DNA of 60,137 nucleotides, filler included, from Hausera hauseri (lineage: Eukaryota): assembly GCA_046269625.1 (NCBI GenBank). It is 11 parts of 11 records of this genome, joined end to end, with 100 filler letters (N's around TTAATTAATTAA, not from the genome) between each part and the next. Parts side by side here need not be neighbours in the genome. Positions count along the whole stretch, not along the records: positions 38,663 to 46,166 come from JBJURY010010899.1; 10 more parts are not named here. One strand, given 5' to 3'. Below, one piece after another: positions 14,906 to 60,137 of this stretch; positions within the stretch are counted from its first letter, which is position 1; the number at the start of each line of letters is the position of its first letter. The notes under the pieces are model-generated. The model made no database searches. It was given only the letters and a program-made list of their open reading frames with translations, and was not told where the DNA came from. A program made the translations under genes and the position numbers.

Positions 14906-15274
14906 TTATGATAAAGCCGAGGGTGTAATTGGCAATTTTTCCATCGAGATTTTCGCATACGTCGGCAATAAAATCGTCGGAATACGTTTCAGCTCAATGT
15001 GACAGATGCCATTGTTTCCTGTCACCCTGAAGATTTTCAAATTTTGAAAGTGCATAATATAGCACTTTGCATGGTGTTGGTGATGTTGTTTGATTTTCTC
15101 CACTTCGGATTGAAACTGCTTGGACACATTTTGTGGAACATGTCTCAATTGTGACATTGTTGTTGTTTTCGGTATAGCCGACATGTTCGCTTTTATGTCC
15201 ACGTACGATCTGTTCAGATCGTACTTGACTATAATGAGCGGTTCCTGCTGCTGCTCTGTATTGCTGCTTTGTAG

Positions 15275-18508: not shown

Positions 18509-18576
18509 GGCTTTCTTTAAAGAGCGTCATCCATATGCGATCGGTTGTTCTAGCTCCTCGTCTTCTCGTTTCTGAG

Positions 18577-20330: not shown

Positions 20331-20854
20331 GATTACCGTACCGTAATAACTTGGTGCTATTTGGGGTGTCGTATCGTGGACACTTTGTAGCCGTTGATGG
20401 TAACTTCGGTGGTTCCGACTGGCTGATCGATTAATTGCCTTAACTCTCCAATTGGGTATAGTTAGTTATTCATACCATTCGCGTTTTCTGTTTCTTGTTT
20501 TCTAACTGGTAGCTGGATTTCTTGGTTTCTGAAATGGTGTTTCGCGGCTTCCGGTAAATGTTCACTGCCTTTCGTTTGGTTTAGGTATTCTAGGTGAATA
20601 AATAATACCGTGATCGTCGAATGCTAAGCGACGATGTGGGGCAGACGTCCTTTCCATTTCGTGGATCTTACGCAATATCCCGTAGCGTTTTATTCCTTCG
20701 TAAGGATCCTCTAGACTAAACGGCTTCCGATAGATCCCTGTCTGAAACGAACTCATAGATTGTTTCTCACAGTCTTCATATATAAGTGCCGTTGGCAGCA
20801 GTACTGGTAATGGTAGTTTAATAGCAGAGTAGTTTTGTGCCTGTTCGACTTGGA

Positions 20855-20872
20855 GATAACGTCTCCTCCCTT
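20855..20872 (-). promoter_or_regulatory. Polypurine tract and probable LTR start after the glycoprotein gene
   Basis: AAGGGAGGAGA-CGTTAT, matching the PPT-TGT junctions at 27855, 40792 and 56294. Confidence 0.65.
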
Positions 20873-21017
20873 AGACTCGTCATCGTCATAGTTATTTCTT
20901 CGTGTCTTACTATTTATGAAGTTTTGTCTGTAGTTGAATATGCGTCTTTTACGTTTTCGATTATGGTATCCAACATGTCGCTCCACATTCGCTTTCCATA
21001 TATTCTCTTCATAAGCC

Positions 21018-22871
21018 TTAATGGGTCATAATATCTGTTAGAATCTTACACCAGAATCCTGTAAAAGTGAATATCTCGTATCCATTTATAATCTCTTGAA
21101 TTATTGCTTTGACCAGTTGAATCAAGAAATAAATTGCTAGGAATCCTGATGAGGCTTGTCCAAATATCAGGAATCTCCCCCAAATTTTATACAATATTTC
21201 TGTAGTTACTCTTCGGTAGTAGTTGACACCGAGCAATGATTCCCACTTCGCTTGATAACGCGAGTCCTCTAGTATTGTATGCATCACTCTGTTTAATTGA
21301 TGTATGCGCTGACGGGAGAAAGCAAGGAACTGTCTGAACGCCTGTACTTCCTTCGGTCGGGAAATCCCCTTTGCGGCGGTATCTTGAAATTTATCATCGG
21401 TTATTCCTTTTATTAAATTTTTTCCGGTTAATTTGGTCGGTGGCATAATTATTCCGCCGTTTGGTAAACTTACCCAATCGGTTTCACTACGCCTGAACAT
21501 CGGTTCGCATAGGGTGGACATGCGGTCTCTCAAAATTGTCGGCTGAGCAGAGTTTGCCAACAATATTCTAGTAATTGGTGTTACTAACCTTGGTACGTCT
21601 TGGTATATTACTGGAAGTTTCTGTATACACCTCTTCTCTTCCATATTAATAGGTACATCTTTCTTTTCACATTCGTAGGTCAGTAGGACTTCTCCGGTTA
21701 CCCGTCCGAAAATGCATTCTTTCAATGGAATTATTGGTGATGCTAATTCAGGATTAGCATATGTTAAAGCCAGTTTACTCCGCATAACTTCCAAGTCCAA
21801 TTTGCAGTCATTTGTTATCATTTTGTGATATAAATCGGCTATTCCTGCTTGTGCTTTGTAGCAGAAATAGTCGTCTCTGTTTTTCAAATAATCTTCAATT
21901 TGAATATCTTGAGTCTCGAGCTTAAACGTCCTGGCGTTTATCGCCGTCTTAGCTACAAAGGATGCTTCACAATTGGTGGAGTACATTATGATATCGCACC
22001 TCGTGAGTACATTTTTCTTCACAAATTTTAATCCATTAGTGTCAGAAATCAGTATTCTGGGTGTGGACTGTTCGGTTAAATATTCTCGTGTTTTAGAGTT
22101 AGTTTCCGTGCTATTTATGTATTGTTTCCCTGTCGTTTCATTAAACTTAAGTTCTCTAATTCTGATAAAATAGCAATCGGTCTTGGCTGAAAGTTCCCAA
22201 ATTACCACGGAGCTTTTGAAGGAGCAAGTATCGTCCTGAATGTGGCACTTCTGGTTTTCCGTGTGAAGCTTAGTAACGCTATGGAACATTACCTTTTGTA
22301 GGCGAATTTCAATTTCGTAAAAATCTACTACTACGATGTTAGACTTTAGCCCTTTTCCAGTATCGTATTCTGCGCCATTACAATGTCCGGTGTGCATATC
22401 TAGTCTTCCAGCTGCCACTTTATATACTCTGATTATCTTTTCTTGTTGCATTTCCAATTCCATACCATTTCATTTTAATCTTCCAGTCTCTCTAGCTTGC
22501 TTACAATGCTAACGTTCCAAGTTCATCGGAACTGGTGGGTTTGTTGGCTTGACTAGCGATGAATGCCCATGTACCAATCCGCAATGGAAAATACTGCGAG
22601 ATCGTCGCAACATACATTCTATTCCGTCTAATGTAACTAATTCGCGTTGTTGGTACAGCACGTAATTTTTCTCTTTTGTTTCTAGTTTATGTGGTCTCGC
22701 ATCTTCACACATTTCTAAGTCCATTAATGAGTATTTTTGGCCAAGTTTAAATTTGTCGCATTCGTACACTGTAACTGCACCCATTTGACTTATTAAAATC
22801 ATCACGGTTAAGAAGTTAATTAACCAGTTTGGCTCGTTTCCTCTATTATTTCCGGTTACGTTTCGTAACAA
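21018..22871 (-). pseudogene. Chuvirus-like (class III-type) envelope glycoprotein, retroelement env
   Basis: Signal peptide, then VYEC...YSL..LEMC...YQQ...IEC...IFHCG..HGHSS...G.C.G..Y...NIVV...C......C......W......C; C-terminal WGRFLIFGQASSGFLAIYFLIQLVKAII..IINGY hydrophobic region. Confidence 0.8.
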
Positions 22872-25401
22872 GTCTTCAAATCTATTATTGCCAAGAAGGG
22901 CCTATTTTGATGTTCTTCTTCTTTTTCAAATAATTTGGACCAGTTTACTTCTCGGGGCAATTTCCTGGCAGCCTTCCTTGCCAAGCTAATGGTCTTATTA
23001 AATTCGTTTTCTCGGACCCGATTGATTTTAACGGCCAAATATAGCAACACTTTTCTTAACTTCTCCATGGTGTTTTCTACCATAATCTTCTCGATTACCA
23101 CTGCATCGCTTAAGGTGCTTCTGGATAATTTACACCGAAAAATTTTCATGGCTTTGGCTGCATTAAATATAGCCTTCTCTTTCTCGTTTAGTATATCACC
23201 ACTGAGACTAGAGTGGTTTACTATACGTATCAATTTTTTCATGAGTTCATTCAGTTCTTCGTCATCTGCACTGAAGGTCGGTACGGAAATTTGCCTCAAT
23301 TCTCTGATTAAGTCCCCATTATAATCGATTTCTTCTCGTGTCTTTCGCGGCCTACCGACAGGATGCTTCTGTTTTGTTACAGTCGGTCTGGTATCAATGG
23401 TTGGTACTAGATTCTTATCATATTGTTCCTTGTCTTCATCTGTTTGCAAGTATTCGAAGTACATTGCTGCATCTCGAACTCCTACAATTCGTCCTACCCA
23501 CTGTTCAGTCTTTGCCTTTGGTGGCCTCTTCTTTTGTTTTGTCGGTGGGAATTGTTACTACTATCCGGTTTGCTTCGTCTGGAATAATTCCAACTTCTAT
23601 TAGTAGTTCCAGTTCGTCTAATATTCTTCCTCTAAAATGAAGTCTACAGTTCAGCTCACTTGTATGACCATTACTCCTTAATCACAGTGCTACATCCTTC
23701 ACAAGAGAACGTGTAGTAAACTCGTGCTTCTTCTGATCCATTCAGTCAAACGTTATTCTTACTTTAATCGTCTCTTCGGACCTTGTCTTTAAGAATTTAG
23801 CATATTCTTTGATTAAAAGTTTTGGTGCGGCACTATAAATCGTAACTTCGCTGGCTAATTTAGTTAGGGTGGGAACTAACCGCCTTAACTGATTTTCGGT
23901 AAGGTTTGCATTGATTAACTTAATTAGATCCTTTTCAGTTTGTGATGAGTCCAGAAGCATCTCCACACTAAATCTCTGATCTGGTGGACACGTCTCCGTT
24001 TCGTACAAGTGCACGGGAGTTTTCGGGTTTTCGGCGAATATTGATTTAGATACGCGTCCCATTTGTTTTCGATTTCGGGTAGTCCGAAATCAACCTCAGG
24101 AGTTTCTAACGGCCGGACTAAGTTCTCATCTTTTATTGATTCTCTTAGTTTCCGTAGTTTTTGTTGCATTATAACCATTTGTATGGTTCGGAAACAACGT
24201 CCATTTCCAGAGGTTTGGCGTAATACTGTTAGCAGCTGACATAATTCTTCGGCTGGTATAAATCCTTGTTCTTGATAATTAGTTAGCTCAGAAGCTACAT
24301 CTCTTTGCCATTTTTGCACAAATTGTGACTTCTCAGGCTTTTCTGCTTCTATAAGAGCATACTTATTTTTATACATTTCGAGTTCTTTAGTTAGTTCGTC
24401 TAATCTTACCACTCTCTGTTTGGTTTTAATGCAAGTTTCTTCAATTTGTCGTATCTGTGGCTACAATTATCTTATTTTCTCGTCACTAATTTCTGCTATT
24501 TCCACCATCAGCAGTGCTAATTCATGCATCTCATTAATAATTTTTGAGTCTGGGTCTATTTCATCAAGTAATCTTTTTACAAACTTGGCCTCTTCAAAAT
24601 TAAGACGGTGGTCGTTCCTTACTTTAGTCAGTTTGGTACCATACCTTTGGTCTGTTCCAGCCATCCTTTCTCAGGGGTGGTGTAAGAACGTCACTACTTC
24701 GAGGGTCGACTGATATTCTTGGCAAATGTCTAAAGTTCTGAGATCTCGAACCAATATCTCCTCAATAGGTTTGGCTGTTAGATGTTGGATTCCTTCTAAG
24801 CGGATATTTCTTAATCTTGGATAAAAGTCACTAGTTAAATTCCGTTTTTGTATAAAATTTGTTTCTTCTGTCATTTTATATATATATATATATCATCCAG
24901 CATCTTCATTTCTTGCTTCTTTTTTATAAAGTTTAATTTACGTAATGCATCGAATTGGGTCCGGACGTCAATCTCTACCTTCATCGTATTTAAATTTCGT
25001 GCGTCTTCTATTTGTTTCCTTACTGTAGGCTCGCTCTCTGGAAATTCTTTTTTGCGACTTTCTAGCAGTTTACTCAACCTCGTTATTACTTAGGACCACT
25101 CATTCAATTGGTTAGCGATTTCTGGTTTTGCCCATATTGCCTGGTCTAACGTTTTGTGAACGTCTTCTAGTTCACATCTGGACCTTTAATAAAATCAATG
25201 ACCTGACGGGCGTAGTTGAACTCATCTTTATACTCATCAAACTCGAGGATACAGGCCGTAATTATTTTTTGTGTTTCATCATTATTTGTTTGCATAATTC
25301 TATTTCTTAGACTGCATATTTGCAATCTTTTTTCGGTTTTAATTTTAATCCGATTTTCCAGACTTGTATATTGTTTTGTTGCAGTAGAAGCGATTTTTAT
25401 T
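22856..25401 (-). pseudogene. Fragmented large accessory ORF upstream of env, helical and charged, function unknown
   Basis: Series of adjacent or overlapping co-oriented ORF pieces (25077, 24874, 24664, 24412, 24062, 23464) running into the env signal peptide. Confidence 0.6.
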
Positions 25402-25501
25402 NNNNNNNNNNNNNNNNNNNNNNNNNNNNNNNNNNNNNNNNNNNNTTAATTAATTAANNNNNNNNNNNNNNNNNNNNNNNNNNNNNNNNNNNNNNNNNNN
25501 N

Positions 25502-27896
25502 TCCTCATCTATGTTGTTTCATATCCTTTGATAAGGAATATATGATATGGTATTGGACAGGATTGAAAACGAATGGTGACTGGAAATGGTCGGATGGATT
25601 AATAGGTCCAGAAGTAATAGTGAGATCACCAAAAGCAATAATAACCCCTACTAGGATAACAATGACCTCTACTATAAATGTAATGACTCAGAAATCGACT
25701 AGAGTTATGAACATAATTAGAGAATTAGACGTAACCGTACAGTCGACGCCACACTCTCTCATCATCACTGTGTCGAATTTAAGGAATACAAATATAAAAT
25801 TTGAGTGTTTCCTTTATAATAGGATGGTTAGTGAAGGAGTTTTAACTCCTGAAGAACCGACATCTGCATGTATGTTCCTAAAAGCCGATACAAACTATAA
25901 AGTTATCATAACAGAGCTAGATGATGAAGGAGGAAAATTACAAACAATCTCCCGTATAGAAAAAACTCTAAGACGGACAATAACAACCCCGAACATTATG
26001 CGTAAGATGACTACCCAAAAGCTTGAAGAAAATCCGAATAAATACCTTTGGATGATCATAGTACTATGTACTCTTTTAGTGTTATTAGTCGTACTTTTAC
26101 CTTTAATAATTTATTACTCAAAAATAAGACGACGACGTAAATTAAGAAAAACCCTAAATCAACTAAGACTTTTAAGAAAAGACTCTCAAGATGAGTCAAT
26201 AGGGGATATAAGTGCGCCTAATATCAAAATCCAACAACGGCAAAACTGTCCGTTAATAAAGGAACCTTCGGCTGAAAAACCGAATAATCCTCAATGGCAA
26301 GATTGTCCATTAACACTCCGTAGCGATGAGAATCGATTAATTAAACGACAAGAAAGTCGAACAATGAATATAATCGTAGGATATTGTACCAAAATCCAAG
26401 ATTGGTCCACTAACTTTTTCGTATCGTATCAGAATTATAAATCAAATTCATTTCGTATTCCTTATTTTGAATCTTTTTGGCTCACATACATCTATTTTTT
26501 TTAGTTCAGCAAGGATCAGAAATCGCGGAGAGACCAAAATCCTTTTACTATAATGTTTTAGACAATCTCAACCAAACCGTCAACAAGGATTATATATATT
26601 ACGGTAAAGCTACATTGATCCCTAATAATCTAAAAGGGCACCTTCTTCAACAAAGGGTGGCCCTGATTATAAAAATGTCCTCAGCAGCGACAAAACTATC
26701 GGACTTGATCGAAGTTTCTAATCGAACAATATCAATTTATATATCCGTAGCAAAAAGCGGATTACAAATTAAAAGCAGAACTCATATTAATGAAATCACA
26801 GATACTTTAGAAGTTCCTAAATTGACTACGATTAGATTGGACAAAAGGTTTTACAAAAATGCTACTTTGGTACTCCGACCGTATGGTGGACCACCCCCAG
26901 TTATTTACATAGAAGCTATTCACAGAGACATCATTCCCCAACCAGAATACGAGAAACCTGTCTATCCTAAAAACCTGCCTCATCTCAATCAACTGACACA
27001 AGGAATATCCTTTGTGAGATTGCCAACTCTTCTGGAAACAAAGATGGTAGTTTTGGCTTTCAATTCAGCCTATATACTAACCCCCCTCAGAAATAAAGAA
27101 AAAACTTTGGTAGAAATAACTATAACTGATATGGAAGGAAATATAATCCTGGACGAATTAGTTACACCTCGCGATCGAGTGGACAATTTCGATAGCCAAA
27201 TAACTGGCCTCAAAGAAATAGATCTTATTTGAAAAACGGATGCATACCAAATTAGAGCCCTCATCCGACAAAAAACTCTACGACAAAATAATTATTGGTA
27301 TGGACATCTATAATTCCAATTTACATCTTGACCTCTTCAATATTAATGCAATCCGTGGAATTAGAGACCTCCTCTATCACGATGAAATTAATCCAGAAGG
27401 AAAACTTAGTCAAAAACAAATTCTTATGAAATTCAACGATATTGTCTATCCCCATCGTACTAAAGACAAGGCTTCCACAATGTTAAATATCTATCGTTCT
27501 ATTAACGAATACCGAATTGATAATCAAATCCTTCAGAACTCACCAATTCCGACAAAAGAAACTCAAATAGAACCTGTCCAAGATTCTATATTAATCCCAG
27601 AACCAATGGAAACAAACCAAGAATTACCTTCCCAAGTTACTAGTAATCAAGAATCTGATATAAATCAATCTACCGAATCTATTGTTATAGATCTTACCAA
27701 GTCAAACAAAAGAAAGAAACAAACACAAGAAACAATAACTCTCAAGAAAAAAATAATGAGGAAAGGAGAATGGGGACGGATAGAATCCGCCAGTTATCGG
27801 TACGATAACGGAATTCTAAGAACCTACCCTTTGATGCTGAGGACAGCATCATCCAAGGAGGGAGGTGTTGGACCAGTTGAGCCGGCTGTTAATTAA
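25502..27896 (+). pseudogene. Retroelement 3' accessory polyprotein: lectin-like motif, FN3-like domain, TM, cytoplasmic domain, inactive DEDDh exonuclease fold
   Basis: YWTGL...WKWSDG; L.ADTNYKVII; TM YLWMIIVLCTLLVLLVVLLPLIIYY + KIRRRRK; EITITDMEGNIILDELVTPRDRVDNFDSQITGL...IIIG...IRD; ends in PPT/LTR. Confidence 0.75.
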
Positions 27897-28569
27897 ATTT
27901 GAGTCAGTCGAGCCGGCTGTTAATTAAATGAATTGACTAATTGAGTCTCCTGAAAATAAATTAACTGTCTCCCGATAATTCAATCGAGAATTTAATTATT
28001 GATGGACTACTGAATTAATTTTCGCCAGATATTTGTTACCTTTTTATTTTATTTTCTTGTAAATTGATGATCAACGTTTTTATTATTGGTGAATTTTTCT
28101 TTGTGTGTTCATAATTAGAAATTGCTATAAATACATGAACATTGATGATTGAAACACAATCTTTCTTCTGACTTAATCAATGTATTTTGATGGATGTAAG
28201 TGTTTTGTTATATGTTTTTATGGTTTCATTGTATTTAGCTCTTAATTAGATATTTATTTTTGAGTAATTGTTTTGTTTTCTATAGTAAGGTATAATTAAT
28301 TCTTAAATTTTAACCCACTTTGGTATTCCGGTCCCGTAATTGACCGGATGTCTAACGTTTTCTAAGTAAGGGGTAAACCGTCAGTGTCCCTCCTGAACGG
28401 TACTCACCTTAAGGTCAAATAAAGCCTAAAGCAACCCCACAGGTTGCTTATAAGAATAATTAATATCAGGTCTAGTGGGAAGGAGAAACCCTAGACTTTA
28501 TTTAGTACTAAGTAAAGAGTATAAGTTTAGGGTCGTAAGACCAATAAATCTTTGCCTATAAACTTATCA
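27866..28569 (+). repeat. 3' LTR
   Basis: PPT AAGGAGGGAGG at 27855-27865, TG...CA termini, TATA-like at ~28125, structured 3' end. Confidence 0.8.
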
Positions 28570-28582
28570 AACCTTTTTTAAT

Positions 28583-29253
28583 TGTGATATAGCACAAGAC
28601 TGTTTAGTCTAGTGCAGATTTATTTTCACTTGATTTTTCTTGCACGTTTTGGAAATTTATCCGTTTTATTTTATGTTATTGGATTTACATTTGCATTTTT
28701 CTTCTTAAATTGCATTACTGAACAAGTATAAATAGCAGAATCTTCCATTTATACCTAACCTAACATTTTCTGGAAATGACGTATTTGTATGATTATTGTA
28801 AGTATTGTTACATTGATTTATATCTTTTATTCTTAAAGATATCTGTTTATTGATTCATATTGTTTCTTTTAAAGGCAATAAAGCATTGATATTTAACGTC
28901 TTGGTTTGATTTAGTTGGATATTTAGTATTTTATTCTTAAATCTTACGTTGATAATAACATTAAGTATTGTAATAAATTAAATAATAAATTCTTGGGTCC
29001 CTTTTTGGTATACCGGACAGTAAAATCCGGTTGTTAAAATCAACTAAATAAGGGGGAGAATCGTCAGTGTCCCCTGACGAAACTCACACCGTAAATCTAA
29101 ATAAATTAAGTAAAGTTATCGGCAACCCACAGGTTGCTATAGACTGATATATAATAATAAGGTCTGAAGAAAGGAGGACCTTCAGACAGTAAAGAATAGA
29201 GTATAAGTTTAAGGTCATAAGACCAATTTTTCTTTACACCTATAAACTTATCA
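28583..29253 (+). repeat. Second, related solo LTR in tandem
   Basis: 3' ~250 bp is homologous to 28318-28569 and ends in the identical CCTATAAACTTATCA. Confidence 0.75.
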
Positions 29254-29615
29254 AATGCAACACCACACAAAGCAAACCCAGTTCAAGATACGTTGAAAAC
29301 ACTTACTGGGAGTTGCTACCCCACCCGCCGTATTTATCAGACTTGGCTCCTTCTGATTACAATTTGTTTTCATCGATAGGACACGCACTTGCTGAACAGC
29401 ATTTCAATACTTATGAAGAAGTCGAAAATGGGTCGATGGATGGTTTTCTGCAAAGGACGAACGGTTTTTTGGCATGGTATCCACATACTGCCAGAATGAT
29501 GAGGAAAATGTGTGAATAACAATGGACAATACTTTGAATAAAATATTTTGTATTATTCTGTTAAAATAAAGGTGTTATTTTCATTAAAAAACGATGGTTT
29601 GATATTTGTATTTTT
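29254..29615 (+). mobile_element. Mariner transposase 3' remnant
   Basis: LPHPPYLSDLAPSDYNLF (YSPDLAPxD motif). Confidence 0.92.
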
Positions 29616-38662: not shown

Positions 38663-40811
38663 AATGGGACTCATTCCAAGGAAGACAAAGTCGGTTTAGC
38701 ACATTTGTATTTAACAGTAGGGATTTCCACGATTACAAGCTGAAATTTCGCATAGCCGCTTTACCCGCGAAACTAATGGTTGAAGTAACCGAAGAGGAAA
38801 CAACGACCACTTCATTGCCGCCATTAGAATTCAGACAAAGGCCCACTGAAGAAGAACAAGACGCGCACCTACACTCATTTAGACTAGTGAAAAATGACAG
38901 AAATATTAGGATTATCGCGATAAATTATGGGGAAGGAGACGAAGGAAATTATATTCCAATTGAAATATCTATACGAGAAATAAACGGGGCCGAAGTCTAT
39001 TCGAAAATCATTAACCCAAGAAAGAAAGTAGAAAAAACCTATGCAGAAGTAATCGGAATAAAAAGAGAACAGTTAATCCACGGCAAGGATTCCAGATTAG
39101 TGCAAGAGGAAGTAGCACATTGCCTATACGGATACGTCATAGTGGGGTATCAAGTAGAAAGAATGATAGAAAAATTAAACATACCAGCAACTCAAATAGC
39201 CGGAATGAGAGATATAGAGACCCACCCAACTGTGATTGAACAAATGGAAATCAAGGTCAAAGAGTTGAAGGGTCATCTACCGCCGACCGTGAAAGGCCGA
39301 TTTAAATTAATGGTAGAAGCAATGACTGGAGGACACATTAAGATAAGCCGACTGCTGACCGCTAGTCAATTCTCCTAATATCTAATGGACATAAATGCAG
39401 GATTAAAGTAGGAATATGAGTGGACCCCCAGTAATCCTGGACAAAACCTACGAAGTCTCCCCAAACTCGAAGGAATCAGTACACGATATAGAAAACATTT
39501 CCCTCCATATTCCCGCCAAAAAATGTTGATATCACGCCGAAGTGGAATTATCAGATAACCATCCAAGGATTAAAATCCGAAAGAACGGAAGAAAAACTGC
39601 CAACAGACGAGAAGCCTAGTACTAGTTTCGCAACTTAGACGGCCGAAAATCGTGGCGAGTTCAAGGTACCAGAAGTTCCCAAAAAACGCATTAAAAAGGA
39701 AGAAAAGACCAAAGGAAATGAAATCGAAAAAACGATAAAAAAAACTTCCGTCTTCGATTATCTATTCAAGAAAAAGAGTAAAGAAAGAGAGAGGGACCAA
39801 GAACAGGATTGTGAATACAAAAGTAAGAAGCCAACCTGCAAAATGGATGGACTAAGTAACCAAGAGGAACACATAACTAATCAACAAAGAACAAAGCAAG
39901 CTAAAGAAACAAGGGGCGAATAACGGAAATAAATATATTAAGGAAGAAAAACTCCACGGACGATGTACATTACGCCACTACGGAGAACTACCCTAGAATG
40001 CTGGTAACAACAGAATACTATAGTCAACAAAGGATTAAAGAGGCCATGTTTTTCGTCAAATTTATGCCCGCAAGGCAAGTATACGAGAACACTTATGTCT
40101 GGGAAAATCCTAAAGTCGGAAAATACGTTGCTGCTGTATTTTAGTCAAAAATAAATGGCAAACTTATAGTTCCCTAAACAAATCCGTAAAGTTGTTACTC
40201 AAGAAACAATATCAAAAATACCGATCGACTGGTGAAATTCCCGATTTAAATCGAGATACTATCAGCGATTGGACCCTAGTACCCGTGTGATGCGATCCCA
40301 AGAAGAGTTCAATAAATCCAAAACAGAAGAGAATATATGCCTATTTATACCAGGATGAAGAAGGATTGATAATAGAACCTATCGAGATTATGATAAGAGT
40401 TGCTTGAACCACGAAAATTTGGAGAAAGGAGAAAAAGAATGCCCAGTGTGCGAAGCTAACCTCAAACAAGGCTATGTGATTTTGGACAATTCGAACTGTC
40501 GACATAAATATTGTCGAGATTGTTTAGAAAAGTGGATATTAGATAACGGCAAAACTACATGTCCAGTCTGTAGGGCTGAAGCCACACACCTGAAATATTT
40601 TTCAAATGGGATTTATACTAGGGTAGTTAGAATAAAACCATACCACAGTTACGAATTGGAAATAAGTCCCAGAGAAAACCAAGCCAGTACAAGCTCCGAA
40701 CTCAGTTTAAGACAACGGATGAGCTTATTACGATCATCGCGTTTAGGCGTCACCTCTCCTGACACAATGGACACATCCGAGGGTGCCGCTCAAGGAGGAG
40801 AAATGTTATAA
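38663..40811 (+). pseudogene. Retroelement 3' accessory polyprotein: inactive DEDDh exonuclease fold, charged linker, unknown domain, C3HC4 RING
   Basis: PIEISIREINGAEVYSKIINPRKKV......IGI...L..G.....V...V...L.GYVIVG...RD; CPVC-x15-CRHKYCRDC-x12-CPVC; ends in PPT. Confidence 0.8.
40404..40811 (+). CDS. C3HC4 RING finger domain (putative E3 ligase), polyprotein C-terminus
   Basis: All eight Zn ligands and the conserved Trp present. Confidence 0.88.
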   Translation: MNHENLEKGEKECPVCEANLKQGYVILDNSNCRHKYCRDCLEKWILDNGKTTCPVCRAEATHLKYFSNGIYTRVVRIKPYHSYELEISPRENQASTSSELSLRQRMSLLRSSRLGVTSPDTMDTSEGAAQGGEML

Positions 40812-40882
40812 ATAGAGTAGACAATAGACCAGTGTACATATTATTACTGAAGTTAGCTGTAGTCAGATAATAAAAGTATTGA
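40804..40882 (+). repeat. Start of 3' LTR (interrupted)
   Basis: PPT AAGGAGGAGAAA at 40792-40803, then TGTTATA. Confidence 0.7.
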
Positions 40883-41615
40883 TGTTATAGTTGGGGTGGT
40901 CCTTACCTTCTCCCACTATAACAATATTAATTTCAATTTAGATTCGCTCTATGAGCAGGTTAGGATTACTCGTTCTCGAGTAATCTGATTGTGCCTTAAG
41001 ATTTTAAAAAGAAATTAGTTTTTGATGCCGGTACTGCGTGCAATAAAACTGCGTGTCTTAAGTTAGATTCTCTCAACCTAGCTATAGAATTTAAGTAAGA
41101 TTTTACCCTTAGTGTAGTGCAAATCGTCCTTAAGGGACGATGGAAAACTATATGGGATTTTAAATAACGATGAAATAACAAATCACCTTTTATTTGATGT
41201 ACTGACAATTCGATACAACAGTGTTTCTCAAGGAGAATAATTCACGATAATAATGTCAATCGATTTCCAAATAAGCGTAAGTCGGTTCACGGAATGGCGT
41301 ATTGCTTCTTTAAATTTCTACGTTGTACGACTCTAATTCGTACTCTCAATCGTTCTACTCTCACTGTTTTTCAATCTTCTTATATACTATTCTGACCGGA
41401 TTCCGATTTCTAATTATTTACAATTGTTTTACCTTATTTCTACATTCTAATTAAATTATCCAATTTTAACCAATTCACATTTAATAATCAATTTAATCAA
41501 TTCATAAACAGAGGTTCCAAATTATGTACACAATTACGCAAACGGATATTTATCCAATTAATTTTCTGTACGGCCATGATTCGACTTCCGTACTGTTTAT
41601 TGACCTTTTATTACA
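40883..41615 (-). repeat. Inverted LTR related to 56306-57093
   Basis: Reverse complement shares GATTACTCGAGAACGAGTAATCCTAACCTGCTCA, CGAATTAGAGTCG and the terminal hairpin; TGT...ACA termini. Confidence 0.85.
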
Positions 41616-41619
41616 CTAA

Positions 41620-44210
41620 TATTTGTTTAATGAAAAACAATGCCTCTCTTAAAGTTCATGTTAATAGATGCAAACCGGCAGCTAAAGAAAGCAAGCTTAG
41701 AAGAGATGAACAAAACACAGTAAGAAGTATTAGTGATAAAGCCATGAAAACAAAGCCAACACAAAAGCTTTATGAAATGAAGAAATATCTCATAATAATA
41801 ATTCTTATGCTTATTTCCCAAACCTTAAGCCAGGTGACAAAACAAAAAGTTGAGCATGCAAAAATTCGATATGCAATAGCTATCAATAAAGATTTATTGT
41901 TAAGGAGCTTACGATACCGAGTGATATATTCGAGTAAAAGCCAAAAATGTATTATATGATATACTCTAAGATAGATGGACTCCGGTTACTTAATAAGAAT
42001 TGAAATGATACCTTACGATGACGGTCAAAGGAACCCTAGTAAACAACAGCACAATTGTGTAGGCCATCCTTGGATAAATGAAACCCAATGTGTTGTGGAA
42101 AATTCATGAATTTATAATGTCTTCCTTTCATAAAGAAGAAAGTAAACTATTATCAAAGTCGATTTACTAAATTAGCGAAAGTTATAAGAGTTCCCACTAG
42201 GCATGAAATGAATCAGACATTACTGGACGAAATAATAATAACACAGTTATCGGCTAGGTCAATCGGGTTTAAAGGTGGAAGAAGTTGTATAGAAGTAGCT
42301 AGTATGATAGAACTAGAATATATACGATGGATAACCATAGTTATAAAAGAGATGAATGCCCAAAAGGGTATAGTTACAAAATGTAAAATAACAGATGAAC
42401 AACAGAAAGTCTGCTGTAATGTCACTAGAGGAAAAATATATGAACTAGACAATATGATTTCTCGAAAGAAATATGGAAAATTTCAAGGCAGATTAAAGAG
42501 GAAAGGTCCAACAATGTATAAGATATCAAAATCGGATTGAATATGAAGAAAAAGGAGAAAATATTTCGATACCAGCTATGCATTCTTCATTGAATAAAAA
42601 GAGTAAAGAGAGATGACTATTTTAATTAGGCCATACGCATCGTATTACCGACAAAAACGTTCAATATGGTAAAACATAACGATCACAGCGGCGTCGACCG
42701 CACTAATAATATCTTTAAAACCAGATCTTGATTTCTCGAAAGTAAAGTTCACATGCAAGATAAGAGAAACAATAGTAGCAACAGGAGACATAACACCAGA
42801 CGACCTAGTAGTACCATGCGCTGCATTAACCCCAAATACTGTTCGACAATACTAATAAAATAGTTTCTACAAAAATTGTAACAGCTCAAACAAAAAACGA
42901 AGTAGAAATAAAACTACCTTTTAAGAAAGCGATTGTTAGCCAGTCGATGACTATTATGCCTTTGCATTAACTATTATCTAAACTCTATTTTTACATTATC
43001 TAACGAGATCCAGTCTATACAGCTCTCCAGGCGTTGGTTCGACAATACCCACAAACATTTATTGAACGCAAACCGAACCAGTATTACACAGTGCTACATG
43101 ACAATACATTCTCATTAAACTACCCCCAAGTACAGCAGATCCCAAACAACTTAAAGGGCTATAACATGGCCATTCCATCAATGGCGCTAATACATCTCAC
43201 AAAAACCACCTATTTCTTTCTAAAGGACCTGATCATTATGCCAGAAAATTATCATTGTTCAAATTTACAATATAGTTGGGACGTTTGAAATAAAAACGAA
43301 AGAAGTAAAAACGATAATAACTGGCGATCTTATAAATCTAGACCAGTGCTACGGAATATCTATCGATTTTGTCTTTGCAATTAAGAATGCCGTAAAAATC
43401 AGGTCCCTCTCCAGTCTAATTGTACTTGGTGTTGGTCATCAAAACTGAAAAATCATGGCCAACAAATCCCGCGTGTAATTGTTTTAACCTCCTCGAAGCC
43501 AACTATCTAAATATGAAAGAAAAATCCTATAGTCGAACCGTAAAAGTTAATCCCGACAATTGTATTATAGTGGCCGTCAAGCTGGCATATGACAAATATA
43601 ACCAAATGCAGCCAATTGAATATTCAGTCGTGAAACCCAATGGAGATCCAGTTTTTTATACATTAATAACGCCTCGACAACGGATAAATAACTACGACAC
43701 CCACGTAACCGGACTAACGGATTTACAGATAGCCAATCAGATGGACGTCCAGCAGTTCTACGCCAAAATTTGGGAAATTCTCACAGAGAAGATGGTCATC
43801 GGGGCCGATGTAATAAACACTATTTCCACTTATTTGAAATGTCCATTACGGAGAATCGTAGGAATTCGTGATATTTTATATCATGAAGAGATTCTCCGTA
43901 AATACCCAATGGATTCTGTTAACCCACGTGAGCTAGCAAGAAAATTCCATAAAACACGGAGCATGCCATTATGAGGCACAGTAATGGTCCAATGTTTTTA
44001 AGCCTTATACCGCACATTACAGTGATCAGATGAAATTATAGATGAGAGGACGGCTCCCGAAAAGGTGTTAAAAACACCACCTACAGTACCTAACAAAAAG
44101 AGAAGGCTAAACATGGAGGTTTTGATAGACGGAGAAATCTATACAATGGACGCCATCCGCTACAAGGCACCATCCGGAAGGACAATTTTTCTTCCACCAC
44201 AATCGTAAAT
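41620..44210 (+). pseudogene. Integrase C-terminus followed by secreted/membrane accessory polyprotein with FN3-like and inactive exonuclease domains
   Basis: VHVNRCKP, then MKKYLIIIILMLISQTLSQ; KFTC...TGDITPDD...C..LTPNT; IPNNLKG; TLITPRQRINNYDTHVTGL...IRDILYHEEI, all homologous to 25502-27896. Confidence 0.75.
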
Positions 44211-46266: not shown

Positions 46267-46722
46267 ACTCCAAACCATTTTATAATAGGTGGACACAACG
46301 GTGAAACATCCTCAGAGATAACCGAAACGAGGAGGACCAGTTTGGCAGATAGATGAAGATATATACAAAATTTACTCAACGAATATTAGGATCGCTGGAG
46401 AAGTGAACTCCTGTCCGAATGGCGAATTTATGACAGAATAAAAGGAGAAAAGACAGAATTGAAAATCGGAGACAAAGTGTGGCTATTAGAAAAAAATGAA
46501 AAGTTAAATCACTGGCCGGTTGCAGAAATAACGAAGGTTTTTCCAGGGACAGACAACGTTATAAGAGTAGTAGAGCTAACACTGAACGGGGAAACGTATA
46601 AAAGGCTAGTGCATAAGTTGAGTAAAATAGAAAATGAGTTGGTTTGGATCGATACCGTGGAAGACGAATCTATTAGCCGGATTGCCCCAAGGAGGGGGGA
46701 AATGCTAGGACCCAATTGCTGA
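46267..46722 (+). pseudogene. BEL/Pao integrase C-terminal region
   Basis: TPNHFIIG, RWRSE.L, KIGDKV, WPVAEITKVFPG.DNVIRVV, YKR.VHKL. Confidence 0.92.
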
Positions 46723-48426
46723 TTGGGGAATCCGGCGAAACTCCGATCGAAAATCGAGATTAGGACAATAAGAGAGTATGTGTGGATGTGTGTGTGCATA
46801 GACTGTGTAAATAGGTATATTTGTACATAGGAGTGTGTAAATAGCTACGGCATGTTGAAAGTATATATTTGTACATAAGATTTAGTGTTTATAATGATAA
46901 TTGTGTGTGGTCCGGTTACAAAATGGGCACGTGTGATTGAAAAATGTAAAAATGTGAAATGCAAAATTGAAATGTGTTATGTAATCGTGACGCAACCCTT
47001 GTGGACGCTCATAAAGACAGAAAAGGAAGAGGAATACATATTAGTTATTAGATGTGTGTGAGTGTCTATAATAGATGCATAGAAAGAAAGAAGAAATAAT
47101 AATCATAAAGTGAAATATTACATATTGATAAATTAATATAGAATTAAAAAATTTAAAATTTGAATTTGATAAAGAAGAATGCGATTATGTTAAATAGGTC
47201 AAAACAAGATTATAAACAGTTATCCAGAATCAGGATATACAAATGCAGTTTCAAATATGAAAGAAGTGTTGAAGGTTCATGGAAGGTGGATGTGGGTCGA
47301 TTTAGAATTAATTTCCACGTGATAACAACGAAGATATTAAGTTTAATATCAAAAAAATGGTCAAAATGGAATTTATCTTCTTTTACTGACAAAGTTATTG
47401 TAATACATCTCTACTATGTTAACGACACAAATATCTTTACTACGATTGTGGAAGAGTTGGTAAATGATAACATGCCAGTTGATGTGATGTTAAAATCTGA
47501 CTTGAGTATACCGACCGAAGATCGAAACTTATGCTGTGGAATACGCAGACGAAATCTATCGACAATAATACTTAGACAAGGGCAAAATTTTAGAGGAAAA
47601 ATGAATCACCTGAGGGATTTAATTGTGAGGAAGTTTTTGTTATGGAATTATCGATGGTTCTCGTTATTATCGAAGGGACATTCTCTATTCGGTAGAACCC
47701 CTGTCATGATATACGATATTCTGTATGTCGTTAGTGGTGATCGCAGCGATCGAGAGAAGCTATGTAAAAGAGAAGGTACTGTTCATTATAATTGTTCTTT
47801 GTATTCCTTTTTGTTTTGTTTAATGGGTGGCAGCAGGGGTTGCGAAAAGCGAGTGCGTATGTGTGTACGTGTGATGGTAATTGATGGGTTTTATGCATTT
47901 ACGTGGGAACTAGATTTCGGGGTTAAGAAGGGAATCGTATGTGTTAGCCATTTTGAATTGGATAAGGAACAATATAAGGTCACAGACGGAAGATGTTTAA
48001 ATGGAGATGGTAAAAGTTATGGGCCTGGCTTAATAGAATACGCGCTTATTGGTGAATTGATTGAAGTTTTTGTGTGTTTGAATGATGAGACTGGTTTATT
48101 ATATAAAAGTAATAAAGATTCTCCAGAAGCAACTCAGGTGCAGATAACTACGAGGATTATCGAACCACCACCGAACCCAGAGAATATCCATTCCTGAAAT
48201 TAATAACAAACGAATCTATCACAAGCACAGAAAATCAAATAAAATATTCAACAAAAGGGAGAACCGATACTGACGTTGAGGATGACAATTGTTGGTATGA
48301 CTGTGGGTTTTGGTAACGATTCCCGATTTGTTCTGGACCAAATTTAATTTGTAAGATGGTAGTTTAATACCCGCATTTGTTGGGAGTTCTAACCCACCCT
48401 TGGAAAAGGTTACGCAACTCCCAACA
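46703..48426 (+). repeat. Long (~1.7 kb) BEL/Pao 3' LTR
   Basis: PPT AAGGAGGGGGGAAA, then TGCTAGGA ... TCCCAACA imperfect inverted termini; duplicated U3 motifs; AATAAA at ~48238; terminal hairpin. Confidence 0.7.
47187..48197 (+). CDS. Orphan ~336-aa protein encoded inside the LTR
   Basis: Uninterrupted ORF (open from 47160) in AT-rich DNA; no recognised domain. Confidence 0.65.
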   Translation: MLNRSKQDYKQLSRIRIYKCSFKYERSVEGSWKVDVGRFRINFHVITTKILSLISKKWSKWNLSSFTDKVIVIHLYYVNDTNIFTTIVEELVNDNMPVDVMLKSDLSIPTEDRNLCCGIRRRNLSTIILRQGQNFRGKMNHLRDLIVRKFLLWNYRWFSLLSKGHSLFGRTPVMIYDILYVVSGDRSDREKLCKREGTVHYNCSLYSFLFCLMGGSRGCEKRVRMCVRVMVIDGFYAFTWELDFGVKKGIVCVSHFELDKEQYKVTDGRCLNGDGKSYGPGLIEYALIGELIEVFVCLNDETGLLYKSNKDSPEATQVQITTRIIEPPPNPENIHS

Positions 48427-54153: not shown

Positions 54154-55086
54154 TTACACGTGTGTATTTTTATCCCCTGTTGAAAGTTCTCGGATTAAAT
54201 AATGTGCTCTGATTTTAAGATTTTGAGTATTACTCTGAAAGTTCTTTTTATTCCTCATTTTACTACTATGTGTGCCTCTTCTCAACTTATACATCCTTAA
54301 AATTGTCCTGGATTTCGTAGTTTTCAACATATATATCCCCATATATCCCTAATACCCCTTATCTAAAATATAACTATAAGAAAACACATTAAAATAAACT
54401 TTACATACATACCTGGCCTTTGTTATCGCGGTGCCTTTCCGCGGGGAATTTACTTCACCATTAAATTCTCGTACCAGTTCAAGCATACTGATTTTATCAC
54501 TCACGAAACTCCTGTTAACATTCACAAGAACAAAAGGAGAACAACAACAATAAACTATAGTATTAACTAAGCAACATATCGTATCAATCACTAACTTCTT
54601 CCTCTCTGTGATCACAGTTAATCTTTCTATCATAACGTTATACATCTGCATAGGAAGTTCTGTCAATGTGTGTGTCATCGCAGTCACAATTTTTTCAATT
54701 AAATATTCCTCGTTCATCTTTTGTTCGTTTCCTTTTGTTGGCTTGGATCTACATAAGCGTCTAAATAATACTGTCTGCTCATTAAGTCTCATTAACAAAA
54801 AGATATAACAAACAAAGCTATACCCTTTTACATTTTCATTGAACATGACCAGATATGTAATTATTTTCAGTTGAATATAATGTTGCATTTGTTGTTGAGA
54901 ATAGTGCCTAAGGGACATTCCAGTTTGGTAATATTTTTGAGGCCTTTTTCTGTCGTTCTTCGCCATATTTCTAAGGGAGATTTTACATGCATAACCTCCG
55001 AAGCTTTCTCTTTTAATAGAGACATAAATCCTTCGATTTTGTTCACTGCAACCCGTAAAATAAGCTTTCCTTGAACTTAGATGCAT
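54154..55086 (-). pseudogene. Orphan ~310-codon ORF with one internal stop, possibly LTR-embedded
   Basis: ORFs 54349-55086 and 54154-54342 share a frame; TATATAAATA ~150 nt upstream. Confidence 0.5.
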
Positions 55087-55731
55087 TACACTTTTTTGGA
55101 CAGATAAATTTTAATTGCAATTTATTTCAATTTTTTGTCAATTTATATTTCTGATTATTATCGGTGATCTTTATCACCAAGAATATCATGTTATATTATC
55201 GTATATATTTTATCTATATAATCCTATGTATATTCTATTTATATAACTATCAATATTTTATATGATTCATATAAATGGGAATTCCCACTATTATATGAAT
55301 TTTGAAATTACAGTTCCACTCACATGGACTTGACCTACAAAGACAGGCTATTGAATGCCATCTTGTGCACAACTGAAGTTTGCTGTTTTTTAACATTATT
55401 TTTGCCGTCTTGATATAATTTCAATCTTTTACGTACAATCGAAGTTTGCTGTTTAACATATCTTTATCTGTAATCTTTAAATACAACGAAGAAAATCCAG
55501 TTGGTTTTTGTGCAACTTAAACTGGTTTTGCAGATTCATTCTTTAAGACATTCTATACGTCTTTTTCTCTGGCTTCTTTAGTAAATCAGCCATATATACC
55601 TTTATTTCTTCTTTTGACCTAGACATTCAATNNNNNNNNNNNNNNNNNNNNNNNNNNNNNNNNNNNNNNNNNNNNTTAATTAATTAANNNNNNNNNNNNN
55701 NNNNNNNNNNNNNNNNNNNNNNNNNNNNNNN

Positions 55732-56310
55732 ATGGAAGGAGTTATCCCTGACCTGGATAAGGATCTTATGGCAGACTGGACATTGATCCAAGTCGATTGC
55801 GACCCACGCAAAAGCTCCGTCAACCCGAAAGAAAAGAGAATTCATGGATATCTGTATCAGGATAAAGACGGATTGGTTTTCGAACCCATTGAGCTGACTA
55901 TCCAAGTCGACCTTGATAGAGATGATTGGGGAAAAGAAGAAAACGAATGTCCCGTTTGCGAGGCTAGCTTACAACAAGGATATGTAATCCTAGACAACAA
56001 AAATTGCCGACATAAATACTGTAGAGACTGCCTCGAGAAATGGACCCTAGACAACGGAAAAACAACATGTCCGGTTTGTCGAGCTGAAGCTACCGAACTG
56101 AAATACTATTCAAACGGAAGTTATACGCGAGTTGTCAGAATCAAACCCCATTATAGTTACGGTCTGGAGACAAACCCTATAACGGTCCAAGAACAAGCCG
56201 ACCTCGATGCAAGAATGAATCGCCTAAGAAGAGAACCCAGAACAATTGGCGCCACCTCTCCTGACGCAATAGGCTCATCCGAGGATGCCGCTCAGGGAGG
56301 AGAGATGTGA
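55732..56310 (+). CDS. C-terminus of retroelement accessory polyprotein with C3HC4 RING finger
   Basis: Intact 192 codons from the gap; CPVC...CRHKYCRDC...CPVC; closely homologous to 40240-40811. Confidence 0.88.
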   Translation: MEGVIPDLDKDLMADWTLIQVDCDPRKSSVNPKEKRIHGYLYQDKDGLVFEPIELTIQVDLDRDDWGKEENECPVCEASLQQGYVILDNKNCRHKYCRDCLEKWTLDNGKTTCPVCRAEATELKYYSNGSYTRVVRIKPHYSYGLETNPITVQEQADLDARMNRLRREPRTIGATSPDAIGSSEDAAQGGEM

Positions 56311-57093
56311 AATAATCAACTCTAGTGACCGACATAATTGCTGTGAAATAATTAATTCTGGTAACTGATATGAATTAAAACACCTGTAAATTAGTTTTGT
56401 AAATTAGTTGAGATCATACCAGTATAAATTGTGGTAGCTGCACCAGAAATAATTGATTAATAGAAAGCAGCGAAGCCGAGAAATAATTGTAATTAATTGA
56501 AAATGGTCTTATGTGTACAAAATCAATAATTAATTATTTTTATGTAAAAACTGCTACTATATAAGCAGTCGAAATTTGAGAGAAGAGAGAGAAAAATTTT
56601 CTGCGACTTAGGAATCGCATCATTCTGCTGAAACTGAAAACCTTTTTGAATCGCAGCGAAACGCATAATTCAGAGAATCCACAGTGTTCGAATTAGAGTC
56701 GGACAACTCAGCTATAAAGACATTGATATTGATTGTGTAACGTTGATATTGACGACATTTCTTCTTGGTGTTATTGTGGTGACCGAATAAAGGTTAATAT
56801 ATATTGTTTTTCTTAAAATCGCATAAGATTTTCTTCATCGACCCTTAAGGTTGATTTGTACTCCACTAAGGGCAAAATCTCACTTAACTTTAAATAGATA
56901 AGACAAGAGATTTGTAAATTGAGGCATTCATCAACGCACGCAGTACCTGCATTGAGTTACAAATTATTCTAAATTACTAAGGCACAAGCAGATTACTCGA
57001 GAACGAGTAATCCTAACCTGCTCAAGGAGCAATTTATAAATTTCAGTTAATATTGTTATAGTGGGGACGATAGGGGCCACCCTAACTGTAACA
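56306..57093 (+). repeat. 3' LTR (788 bp)
   Basis: PPT AGGGAGGAGAGA at 56294-56305, TGT...ACA, TATATAA at ~56557, AATAAA at ~56786, hairpins. Confidence 0.85.
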
Positions 57094-57212
57094 TAAGCAA
57101 CGATTTGAAACTAAAAAATTGGCCAACAAACTTATTTTACAGAATGTTAAATATACAAGTATGATAGTTATCAACTTTCTTTATATGTTCTACACTGATA
57201 GACCAAACGTAC

Positions 57213-59857
57213 TGTGAGACTGTTTATAATGTTTTATTTTTGTTTAAATACATTAAGTGACGCGTGGGCTGACTTTTTGAAATAAAGTTTTTTGTTTAAA
57301 TTGTTATTTCCTAACAAGTTACCACGGCCATTATGCCCTTCAAGTTGTCGGACTTGATTTCTCAATATGACGGATCTACCGATTTTTCCCAGTGGATTCA
57401 GAAAGTGGAAATTTTATTTCAATTGCATGGAATTGCCGACCGACACAGTTTTATTTCACTGTATTTTAGCGTCTAAGTATTCTCAGTTTATCAGATGCTG
57501 CCGAAAGAAGCTTAGGACAGTTTTGAAAAACTGAAGATGGAAATAACGGCGGCGTTTACGCCATCGCCGATCCAAGCCTATAGACAACGTATTCAAAGGA
57601 TATTGTATCCGGGGGAAAATGTGGATATCTACTTGTCGGACCTCTGCCGTTTATCAGCAATTATAACCGCTAATTAGAGCAATGAAGAGCTCGTCAAGGC
57701 TGCTTTTGTTTGCGGACTTACGAAAAACGGGGAAATGGTCTTAAATTTGGACCGTCTTTTAGATAAGAATATCAATGATTTATTGAAATTAACCAGATCT
57801 ATTTTAGAGACCAATAGTGAAGCATGTTCAGTGGTGGAAGAAAGACCTTGAGAAGACTAGAAAAGGCTCATGCTTTCAGTTAGGAAAAAATGGGCATAGC
57901 CGAAGCAGATGCCCTAAACGGAATCAGGGAAACAATATTGGGAAATATCACAGAGTAGCAGCGTTACTGAATGTTTCCCACCCAATAATTCGTTTCAGCT
58001 ATCAATATTTTATTGTACAATTAATTCTTTTAGAACCCTAGCTTTGATTGACACGGGTAGCTTGTGTACATTTATTGTCGAAAAAATTATCGGAAACCGA
58101 GACTGTTACTTCGACCCAAAAACGTGATTGTTATGAGTGGGGAGATACTGAACTGCACCAGAGCGTGTAATTGCGAAGTCACTGTAGGAAATGTGAAGGT
58201 TAGAGTTCCCTCGTCAGTAGTTAAATCTCTTTCTGGAATGAATGCAGTGTTAAGAATGAATTTTGTGTCTGCTATTCGTGACCTGAATATCAGTTCGAGA
58301 GAAGTACCGTTGGTAAAGGCTTTCTTTATTGATATGACTGATGAATAGGATTGTGACTTGGTCATCAAAATAATACGATCGTGTGGAAACGGGATAATTT
58401 TATCATACAGATTTCTGATATAACGGATTCATTGACTAAACGAGATGTATTTTCTATTTATGGAAAATTGGTTCGTCATTACCCTATATGTGGATGGTTC
58501 AAATCATAATGCAGCTTTTTGAAACAATCGTTTGATAGACTAAATTGGTCAAGTAAGTGTGGATACTTCACGAATTGGTTTCTCGAAATAGTACAAAAAG
58601 TGCATAAAGAAGATTCACTTTGTGCAAAAATTGGAAATCGATGAATGAGAGACTTGCAAAGTTTGATCCGACGCAAGCAGTGTCACAATCGAAATGTATT
58701 GAAGTGGGAAACCAAATTGTCGAGGATGCAAGCTGGCTACGAAAAGAAACAGCCGTCAGTCATACTAATGTAGCTGAATTGGAAGCCGTCATAAAAGGAG
58801 TTAATATTGATGACACGATTATGAAAACGCATAACAGGTTTTACGGTTGGGCCAGAAAAACAAAATACGTCTTGGACGAGACGCAGTCAATTTTAAGTGC
58901 GACGATAGACGAGATTCGCCGGGAAATTAAAAATTGTCAGAAGTATCTGTCGATTAATTCGAATCCTATCATGCGGAAAAAAGGGTGGTTAAACAGTTAA
59001 CACATGTGAAGGAGACTAGCTGTTGACGTGACACATTACCAGGGAAATCGGTTCCTGAAGGTGATAGACTGTGGGTCGAGCAGATTCGCGATATGGAGAC
59101 ATTTGGATAATGACGGAGTAAATGTTTTGATATGTCACCTTGGTAGCATTTTCGTGGAATTTGGTCCTTCAGAGCTATTAATTGATAATTATTTGAGTTT
59201 CAGAACGGATAGATTCGCGGCGATGTGCAATAAATGGAATATCAAGATACACTTCTGTTGAGCCATGACGCCATCCGGTAACAAGATTGTTGAATTTTGT
59301 CACAGGACTGTCAAGAATATGGCAGTGACAGGCGATAAAAGTGTTCTAGACATAGTATTCTGGTACAGTGTGCCACCAACAAAAAATGGAAATCCACCTT
59401 CCACGGTACTTTTCAAGAGAAAATCGCGCATCCCGAGAAATAATGAGTCGAATCAGAATCAGAGTGACGTATCCCATAAAGACAGCTTCACAGTTGGAGA
59501 TCAAGTTTATGTGAAACCGGTCCCCACTAAATGCACAAATGTTTGGGTACCAAGGTAGATTACGCGATTAACAAACGGTAGTGAGATAGATTGATTTCAC
59601 AGACATAAGTAACATCAGGCCGGCAAGTATTACTCAAAACGATCAACATCGAATAAGTCCAATGGAAGAAAACCCAAGGTTTCTTCAAAAAGAACCAAAA
59701 AACTTTCAGGTCGCTCTGGAGATTGGCTAACAGATGATGTTTTAGACACCCCATTGGGGTGTTAGACTATTGATAATGTTTAATTCTTGTTTAAATACGT
59801 GAAGTGACACGTGGGCTAAATTTTTGAGTTGCTTGTGTAAATTGGTATTTCTTTACA
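57213..59857 (+). mobile_element. LTR-to-LTR but RT-less Gypsy element with ~100-bp LTRs
   Basis: LTRs 57213-57316 and 59760-59857; flanks CGTAC/TGTAC (near-perfect 5-bp TSD); Gag with CF..GKNGH...CP, ALIDTG, RNase H piece, integrase VDVTHY...IDCGSSRF...LLIDN. Confidence 0.9.
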
Positions 59858-60137
59858 TGTACGAGTAAAATAACTTGAAAATATTTTTTAAATTACTACG
59901 TAATCTATATTAACGATCGATGCAAAATAAATTCAAATGAAATAATTCACATCGGTTGTGAACAGTTTTAAAGTTACTGTGAGGAGGAATTAAAAGGAAT
60001 ATTTAATAAATACGCATAATTCAATAAACAGCCAACAGAAAGTTAGGAAATTAAGAAAAGAAGGAAAATAAGACTCATTTCCCGAGAGGAGGAAATGATT
60101 GTTATATAAACTTTTATAATAAATCTTTTATGGATAA

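Follow-up and report, generated by a model that had tools for sequence, protein, structure and literature searches.

A gene family in the genome of Hausera hauseri encodes a protein that is, with a probability of roughly 0.85, an element-encoded E3 ligase in which a catalytically dead DEDDh nuclease is joined to a RING finger. The window, that is, the whole stretch of 60,137 nucleotides that was analysed, consists of eleven short contigs spaced by N runs; it is AT-rich and full of decayed mobile elements, including Gypsy pol genes, the tail of a BEL/Pao element and what is left of a polB gene, and four diverged copies of the RING/nuclease gene family lie within its 60 kb. The copy at 38663-40811 (+) (copy 1) is a decayed pseudogene, because frame-aware alignment to an intact relative, P0001, reveals in-frame stops at five positions (39376, 39409, 39636, 40142 and 40288). 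The frame also shifts no fewer than four times (near 39546, 39920, 40177 and 40389), and the aligner placed a fifth change near 39745, inside a poorly aligned linker; the longest open stretches are 38665-39375 and 40359-40808. The contig begins at 38663; therefore, about 160 N-terminal residues and anything upstream, such as gag or pol, are missing. We read this copy as the remains of a probable 3′ accessory gene of an LTR retrotransposon family.

The relative P0001 is a protein of 870 amino acids encoded on one 16,242-bp ENA contig as a single uninterrupted ORF, collinear with every window piece (295 of 682 aligned residues identical, over P0001 161-870). Its one ORF holds a beta-rich N-domain, a DEDDh fold, a charged linker, a pre-RING domain of no assigned fold and a C3HC4 RING, and ends in AVQGGEML. 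The first-pass annotation had proposed the same order of exonuclease fold, charged linker, uncharacterised domain and complete RING for copy 1, which is borne out, and had treated it as a single ORF, which holds for P0001 and fails for the interrupted window copy. Along the plus strand of copy 1, the end of the N-terminal beta-rich domain with a spacer occupies 38665-38880, the gene being cut by the contig edge at 38663 (46% identity to P0001 161-235, z 24), followed by the dead ISG20/ISG20L2-like exonuclease fold at 38881-39432 (41% identity to P0001 236-420, with two of the stops near its end). The poorly conserved charged linker with basic clusters at 39433-39919 (31% identity over 90 aligned residues, z 4; pLDDT about 30) leads to the conserved pre-RING domain at 39920-40436, which contains two stops and frame changes (45% and 49% identity to P0001). 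The complete C3HC4 RING at 40440-40574 (Pfam zf-RING_2 E 1.7e-9) is succeeded by a conserved beta-hairpin extension of two strands at 40575-40667 (53% identity; pLDDT about 85 in the P0001 model). The predicted structure of P0001 has a mean pLDDT of 46.5 and is poor outside the nuclease and the RING; a fold prediction from the alignment A1 reached a pLDDT of 35.

The nuclease region of copy 1 has a DnaQ/RNase H-like fold according to Atlas features of 0.93 and 0.91 to RNase_T clusters, and its profile matches ISG20L2 (E 3.4e-7). HMMER profiles of the family match ISG20L2, PolC, SDN1, DnaQ and ISG20 and nothing else, with ISG20L2 and PolC at E 1e-7, and Foldseek on the P0001 model returned two chains of ISG20L2 and one of ISG20 as its top three rows (E 8.5e-5 to 3.3e-4). 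A VIA comparison of the P0001 nuclease, whose blocks have pLDDT values of 45-79 in the model, with ISG20 gave a middling score (Z 7.5, that is, below 8; rmsd 3.8, 120 aligned). Pfam missed the nuclease of the window copy altogether and reached RNase_T only at E 0.14 in one sister ORF; a ToxA_barrel match in the window copy (Pfam E 0.02, below the cut-off) was taken as noise. The catalytic sites are covered by four ORFs, namely the window copy, P0001 and two sister ORFs at 26504-27896 and 43030-44200, and the earlier description of the domain as a pseudo-exonuclease is upheld in all four. The ExoI D-x-E is replaced by A-x-N in the window copy and P0001 (A248, N250) and by A-x-K and A-x-N in the sisters, and the ExoII Asp by M, M, T and S across the four ORFs, in the register taken from ISG20L2/ISG20 alignments. 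The HMMER alignments end before ExoIII, the D of which seems, on inspection by eye against the usual motif, to be absent from all four ORFs. As the acids are replaced in every member covering them, and the other ORFs are only 24-44% identical to P0001 in the nuclease region, the loss of the three catalytic acids is ancestral and predates the pseudogene decay. The family thereby shares its fold and a weak sequence profile with the DEDDh exonucleases ISG20, ISG20L2, SDN1 and PAN2, but lacks their ExoI and ExoII acids.

A dead domain of this type could serve as a decoy that mimics a host 3′ exonuclease (ISG20-, REXO- or PML-like) and captures the enzyme, its partners or substrate ends for removal by the RING. 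ISG20 and ISG20L2 are indeed the closest folds, and a fish orthologue of PML is an exonuclease that suppresses retroelements (PMC13659232; this and the other papers are cited from the available portions of their text). However, the identity to ISG20/ISG20L2 enzymes is 15-19%, which suggests that the surfaces have diverged, and we regard the decoy as quite improbable.

E2-binding RINGs are marked by a Trp in the helix and by Pro and Arg around the last cysteine pair. A second window copy is an open frame at 55732-56310 (+), which covers the end of the pre-RING domain, the RING and a terminus AQGGEM followed by a stop; a contig edge cuts its 5′ part, and it is 69% identical to copy 1 over 522 bases. 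Both window copies and P0001 (residues 747-790 of 870) have the ligand spacing C-x2-C-x15-C-x-H-x2-C-x2-C-x12-C-x2-C, and all three retain the eight zinc ligands, together with the helix Trp and a C-P-V-C-R ending that align with the W and CPICR of RLIM. The two window copies agree at 40 of 44 RING residues despite saturation at synonymous sites (pS 0.97, pN 0.068), so the RING is under strong purifying selection; the pre-RING domain has a pN of 0.21, again with saturated pS. Against P0001, the identity of the RING is 73%, compared with 41-53% for the other folded parts and 31% for the linker. The intact hallmarks and the selection on them make E3 ligase activity likely. The pre-RING domain received no assignment from Pfam, Atlas or PDB sequences and no confident fold in the P0001 model, and no further RING was found in the six frames of the window by family profile. 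Residues 1-25 of P0001 form a hydrophobic helix, which may be a gene-calling extension rather than a real start; should it act as a signal peptide and be cleaved off, the RING would lie in the wrong compartment, which counts against ubiquitination of a host protein.

The two sister ORFs bear on how the domains divide the work. The one at 26504-27896 (+) consists of an N-domain and the dead nuclease, begins with an acceptor-like site (26504-26509) and is complete to its purine tract at 27855-27865, through which it runs into TGT. The one at 43030-44200 (+) has the same two domains, is 27% identical to the copy 1 gene over 123 aa (E 1e-7) and begins at an acceptor-like site (CTAAC branch, CAG), which also fits a stricter acceptor pattern with 11 occurrences on the plus strand of the 60 kb. 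Acceptor-like sites at both starts fit with ORF3s being typically spliced (PMC5408684). The N-domain link of the sisters is weak against P0001 (z 4.2 and 1.9) and stronger between the sisters (z 7.3); a guess that this domain is galectin- or NHR-like was unsupported by PDB sequence search. Both sisters are without the RING and without the pre-RING domain. The linkage of RING and exonuclease that had been expected across copies is therefore confined to a RING subfamily, seen in the window copy and P0001. Since two sister ORFs keep the dead nuclease without a RING, the nuclease has a RING-independent job and need not be a substrate adaptor. The earlier suggestion of target recruitment by the nuclease fold is weakened by this, and the alternative offered with it, the adjacent domain, is favoured; present only together with the RING, the pre-RING domain would be the better candidate adaptor.

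Each sister has an ORF upstream. Just before the sister at 26504-27896, the ORF at 25503-26504 (+) has a C-type-lectin-like motif by eye (no Pfam match), a Thr-rich stretch, a strong transmembrane helix and a basic stop-transfer cluster, and is a second, membrane-bound accessory gene of the sister's element. Upstream of the sister at 43030-44200, a decayed ORF at 41773-43000 (+) has a signal-peptide-like start and several cysteines, with no Pfam match; the one piece compared showed no similarity to the membrane ORF.

From this distribution, the following scheme may be proposed. The ancestral gene would have encoded an N-domain and a dead DEDDh nuclease, probably from a spliced message, and one subfamily would have gained the pre-RING domain and the RING. 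By analogy with other dead DEDD proteins, the nuclease may bind RNA or RNP and so place the protein at the element's RNA; PML-1 PXL and Exuperantia are dead DEDD folds that bind RNA (PMC13659232). The RING, with its intact hallmarks and selection, would recruit a host E2, and the pre-RING domain would select a presumed host protein, whose ubiquitination would benefit the element. Taken as a whole, a dead fold that binds RNA or RNP combined with a host protein ubiquitinated via the pre-RING domain and the RING has a chance that we place slightly under one half. The net charge of the dead nuclease domain is weakly basic (+1 to +5) and gives no clear sign of RNA binding, which counts against the RNA-binding part.

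The purpose of such a protein is a further step. A counter-defence role, as put forward by the first-pass annotation, is plausible as a hypothesis. In its specific form, the E3 of an LTR retrotransposon would be localised to RNA and destroy a host silencing or RNA-surveillance protein (the PIWI pathway, a chromatin repressor or a 3′ exonuclease) only where the element's own RNA is; this form we consider unlikely. If true, it would be a virus-style counter-defence protein and a mirror image of what PML-1 is for the host. Counting against counter-defence, a 2019 review holds that transposons pay a high price for broad anti-silencing (PMC6719617). The dead nuclease may instead bind the element RNA and protect, export or package it, while the RING ubiquitinates element proteins or itself for trafficking or turnover. 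Consistent with such a life-cycle factor, the RING-less sisters retain the dead nuclease, NLS-like basic clusters (by a simple pattern) occur in all four ORFs examined, and CERV, a Gypsy accessory protein made from a spliced message, whose GTPase-like domain is devoid of catalytic residues, is needed for genomic RNA export (PMC10309623). This function would leave the gain of a second domain alongside the RING unexplained, and it is rated as rather unlikely. The linker (P0001 residues 420-570) is composed of 20% K/R and 13% D/E.

Regarding the location of the gene, the frame of copy 1 crosses a polypurine tract within its last codons (40792-40803) into TGT at 40804 and ends in AQGGEML at a stop codon (40809-40811), exactly as had been read earlier; the 79 bases at 40804-40882 (+) are presumed, from copy 2, to be the start of the 3′ LTR. 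Scanned for runs of at least 10 purines followed by TG(T/A), the window has 7 such sites, of which 3 terminate ORFs that belong to the family. In copy 2, the tract at 56294-56305 (+) directly precedes an LTR-like unit of 788 bp at 56306-57093 (+), which is bounded by TG...CA and contains a TATA-like site (56713) and AATAAA (56786) in LTR order; the tract with TGT recurs at copy 1 and at 27855. The purine tract and the 788-bp TG...CA repeat behind copy 2 support an LTR element. Purine-tract read-through as such is nothing special, as a BEL/Pao tail at 46390-46722 (+) (DUF5641 E 2e-13) also reads through its own tract, ending in RRGEMLGPNC.

Beyond the presumed LTR start of copy 1, 79 bases past the tract, a related LTR-like sequence in reverse orientation at 40883-41430 (-) is probably a nested insertion (it matches 56813-57094 at 76% identity over 287 nt and shows two further short matches); its right end is uncertain, the overall match to the copy 2 unit beyond 41164 being not above shuffles. 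The conserved 3′ part of the LTR-like unit (40883-41221 and 56811-57093) is strongly structured (z -4.8), with a terminal hairpin common to both copies and no Rfam match. Searches of the window with Rfam and for tRNAs gave no match. A stretch at about 41550-41700, upstream of the 43030 sister, resembled an integrase tail by eye, but this was unsupported (iE 13).

That the gene sits 3′-terminally in an LTR-type element, part of the original claim, is accordingly supported, indirectly, by the tracts and the TG...CA unit; a gag/pol link is seen for no copy of the family, the contigs starting inside or just before these genes, without 5′ ends. The assignment of the RING/nuclease element to Gypsy is a guess based on its surroundings. 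These same contigs leave room for a gene that does not belong to a retroelement, such as host-gene retrocopies or the remains of an endogenous DNA virus that happen to lie beside repeats, since gag/pol, paired LTRs and target-site duplications were not seen on them; in addition, twelve small RING proteins share a similar post-RING hairpin. We regard this origin as highly improbable, because, of the four ORFs of the family in the window, three read out via a purine tract into TGT, the copy 2 unit carries its TATA-like and AATAAA sites, four diverged copies occur in 60 kb, and a single full-length relative was found among the best 150 of 666 matches from 1.84 billion representatives.

That search used copy 2 (55732-56310) as the query at E ≤0.001. 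P0001 was the top match (E 1e-54) and, among the best 150 of the 666 matches, the only one with a nuclease domain; the other examined matches in that set were generic RINGs or repeat noise. P0002 and P0012 were rejected as relatives, having matched via Asp/Cys repeats (P0002 is Cu-binding_MopE; P0012 was judged by eye), and similar long multi-stretch matches were also dropped. Homologue searches with the nuclease piece (for longer proteins) and with alignment A1 found none, and P0001 as query retrieved only itself; as these searches use exact words, such absence is weak evidence. No relatives were found in phages, and 66 pattern matches in GTDB genomes yielded no confirmed one. Among 100 RING rows, 12 small C3HC4 proteins (P0047, P0050, P0054, P0062, P0073, P0075, P0077 and others) fit the pattern of the post-RING extension, which three family rows did not. 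They are rich in N/I/Y/K/F, 8 of the 12 have a hydrophobic helix, and we take them to look giant-virus-like. With a profile built from them, copy 2 came first and copy 1 third among the distinct rows, and P0001 was absent among the matches listed; the twelve had been selected with copy 2 as the query, and a quick tree placed them apart from the family. Derivation of the RING module from a large DNA virus or giant virus is thus a weak lead.

The viral comparison drawn by the first-pass annotation was with herpesvirus ICP0 and poxvirus p28, C3HC4 RINGs encoded by genetic parasites. The likeness found between the family and these proteins is confined to the RING class, and the closer precedents are transposon-borne, namely Burro RING-BIR, rotifer ORF3 and CERV. 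PML is a RING protein with an N-terminal RING-B-box-coiled-coil. P0001 does not follow this PML/TRIM19 layout: its RING is C-terminal and the B-box family has no Pfam match in it. PML-1 (TRIM19), a host restriction factor, likewise has in its PXL a dead DEDDh fold that binds nucleic acid, with a SAM-like subdomain (PMC13659232). With the RING C-terminal here and the closest folds ISG20-like, the likeness is probably convergence.

Exonuclease ORFs, RING domains and pseudo-enzymes are each already known in LTR elements. The ORF3 of the bdelloid rotifer LTR retrotransposons Juno and Vesta is likewise a DnaQ-fold exonuclease carried as an accessory ORF, but it is of the DEDDy type and keeps its catalytic residues, whereas the window family is DEDDh-like, dead and fused to a RING, a word with 0 occurrences in the available text of PMC5408684. 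CERV of Cer1 in C. elegans resembles the family as an enzyme-like domain without catalytic residues in a spliced Gypsy accessory protein, but it is GTPase-like rather than nuclease-like, serves RNA export and has no RING finger described in the portions available (PMC10309623). Burro/GYPSM1, a giant planarian Gypsy, is likewise an LTR element with a RING and ubiquitin-related domains, which lie inside a polyprotein of about 4,900 aa together with BIR, MATH and BCL2; an exonuclease is not listed for it in the available text (PMC6431247).

As the RING-BIR module of Burro1 is reported to act on host cells, the planarian stem cells (PMC13465017), the RING described here might similarly tune apoptosis or stress signalling in element-carrying cells and so favour host-cell survival or mutualism. 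An env-before-pol layout like that of Burro exists on another contig of the window (PF24664 E 4e-39; PMC6431247), but that contig is unlinked to copy 1, and BIR, MATH and BCL2 have no Pfam match in P0001 at E up to 0.5; this role is improbable. A dead DEDDh-RING fusion in a transposon was not reported in the full text searched, including the available portions of PMC6338049, PMC11410931 and PMC12859917; most subscription papers, Repbase Reports and supplements (including the 1,512-element table of PMC13524379) were outside this scope and could describe one. P0001, an intact natural ORF with a selected RING, would be a concrete protein for testing the dead nuclease-RING E3, with the RING-less sisters as natural controls. 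Even under milder readings, there would be a dead-nuclease accessory family new to LTR elements and a RING capture independent of that in Burro.

Several other elements share the window. The env-before-pol contig contains a Gypsy element at 16645-25402 (-) with many breaks, in which a gB-type (Monjiviricetes) fusion gene lies upstream of the protease, RNase H and integrase in a Burro-like domain order. This order is known for Burro (PMC6431247) and also for nematode, bryozoan and flatworm elements (PMC13524379). It would fit an invertebrate, perhaps a flatworm, as the host. Type B DNA polymerase remnants at 12552-15652 (-) (PF03175 E 0.0026, below the cut-off) look Polinton-like by eye. Open frames of 346 and 253 codons at 47157-48197 (+) and 54349-55110 (-) have no Pfam match. 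Downstream of the sister ORF at 26504-27896, inside its presumed LTR region, two direct repeats of about 210 bp with 71% identity lie at 28362-29255 (+), followed at about 29280 by a mariner-like remnant recognised by eye. A small decayed Gypsy-like element at 57213-59860 (+) is accompanied by direct repeats of about 107 bp with 78% identity.
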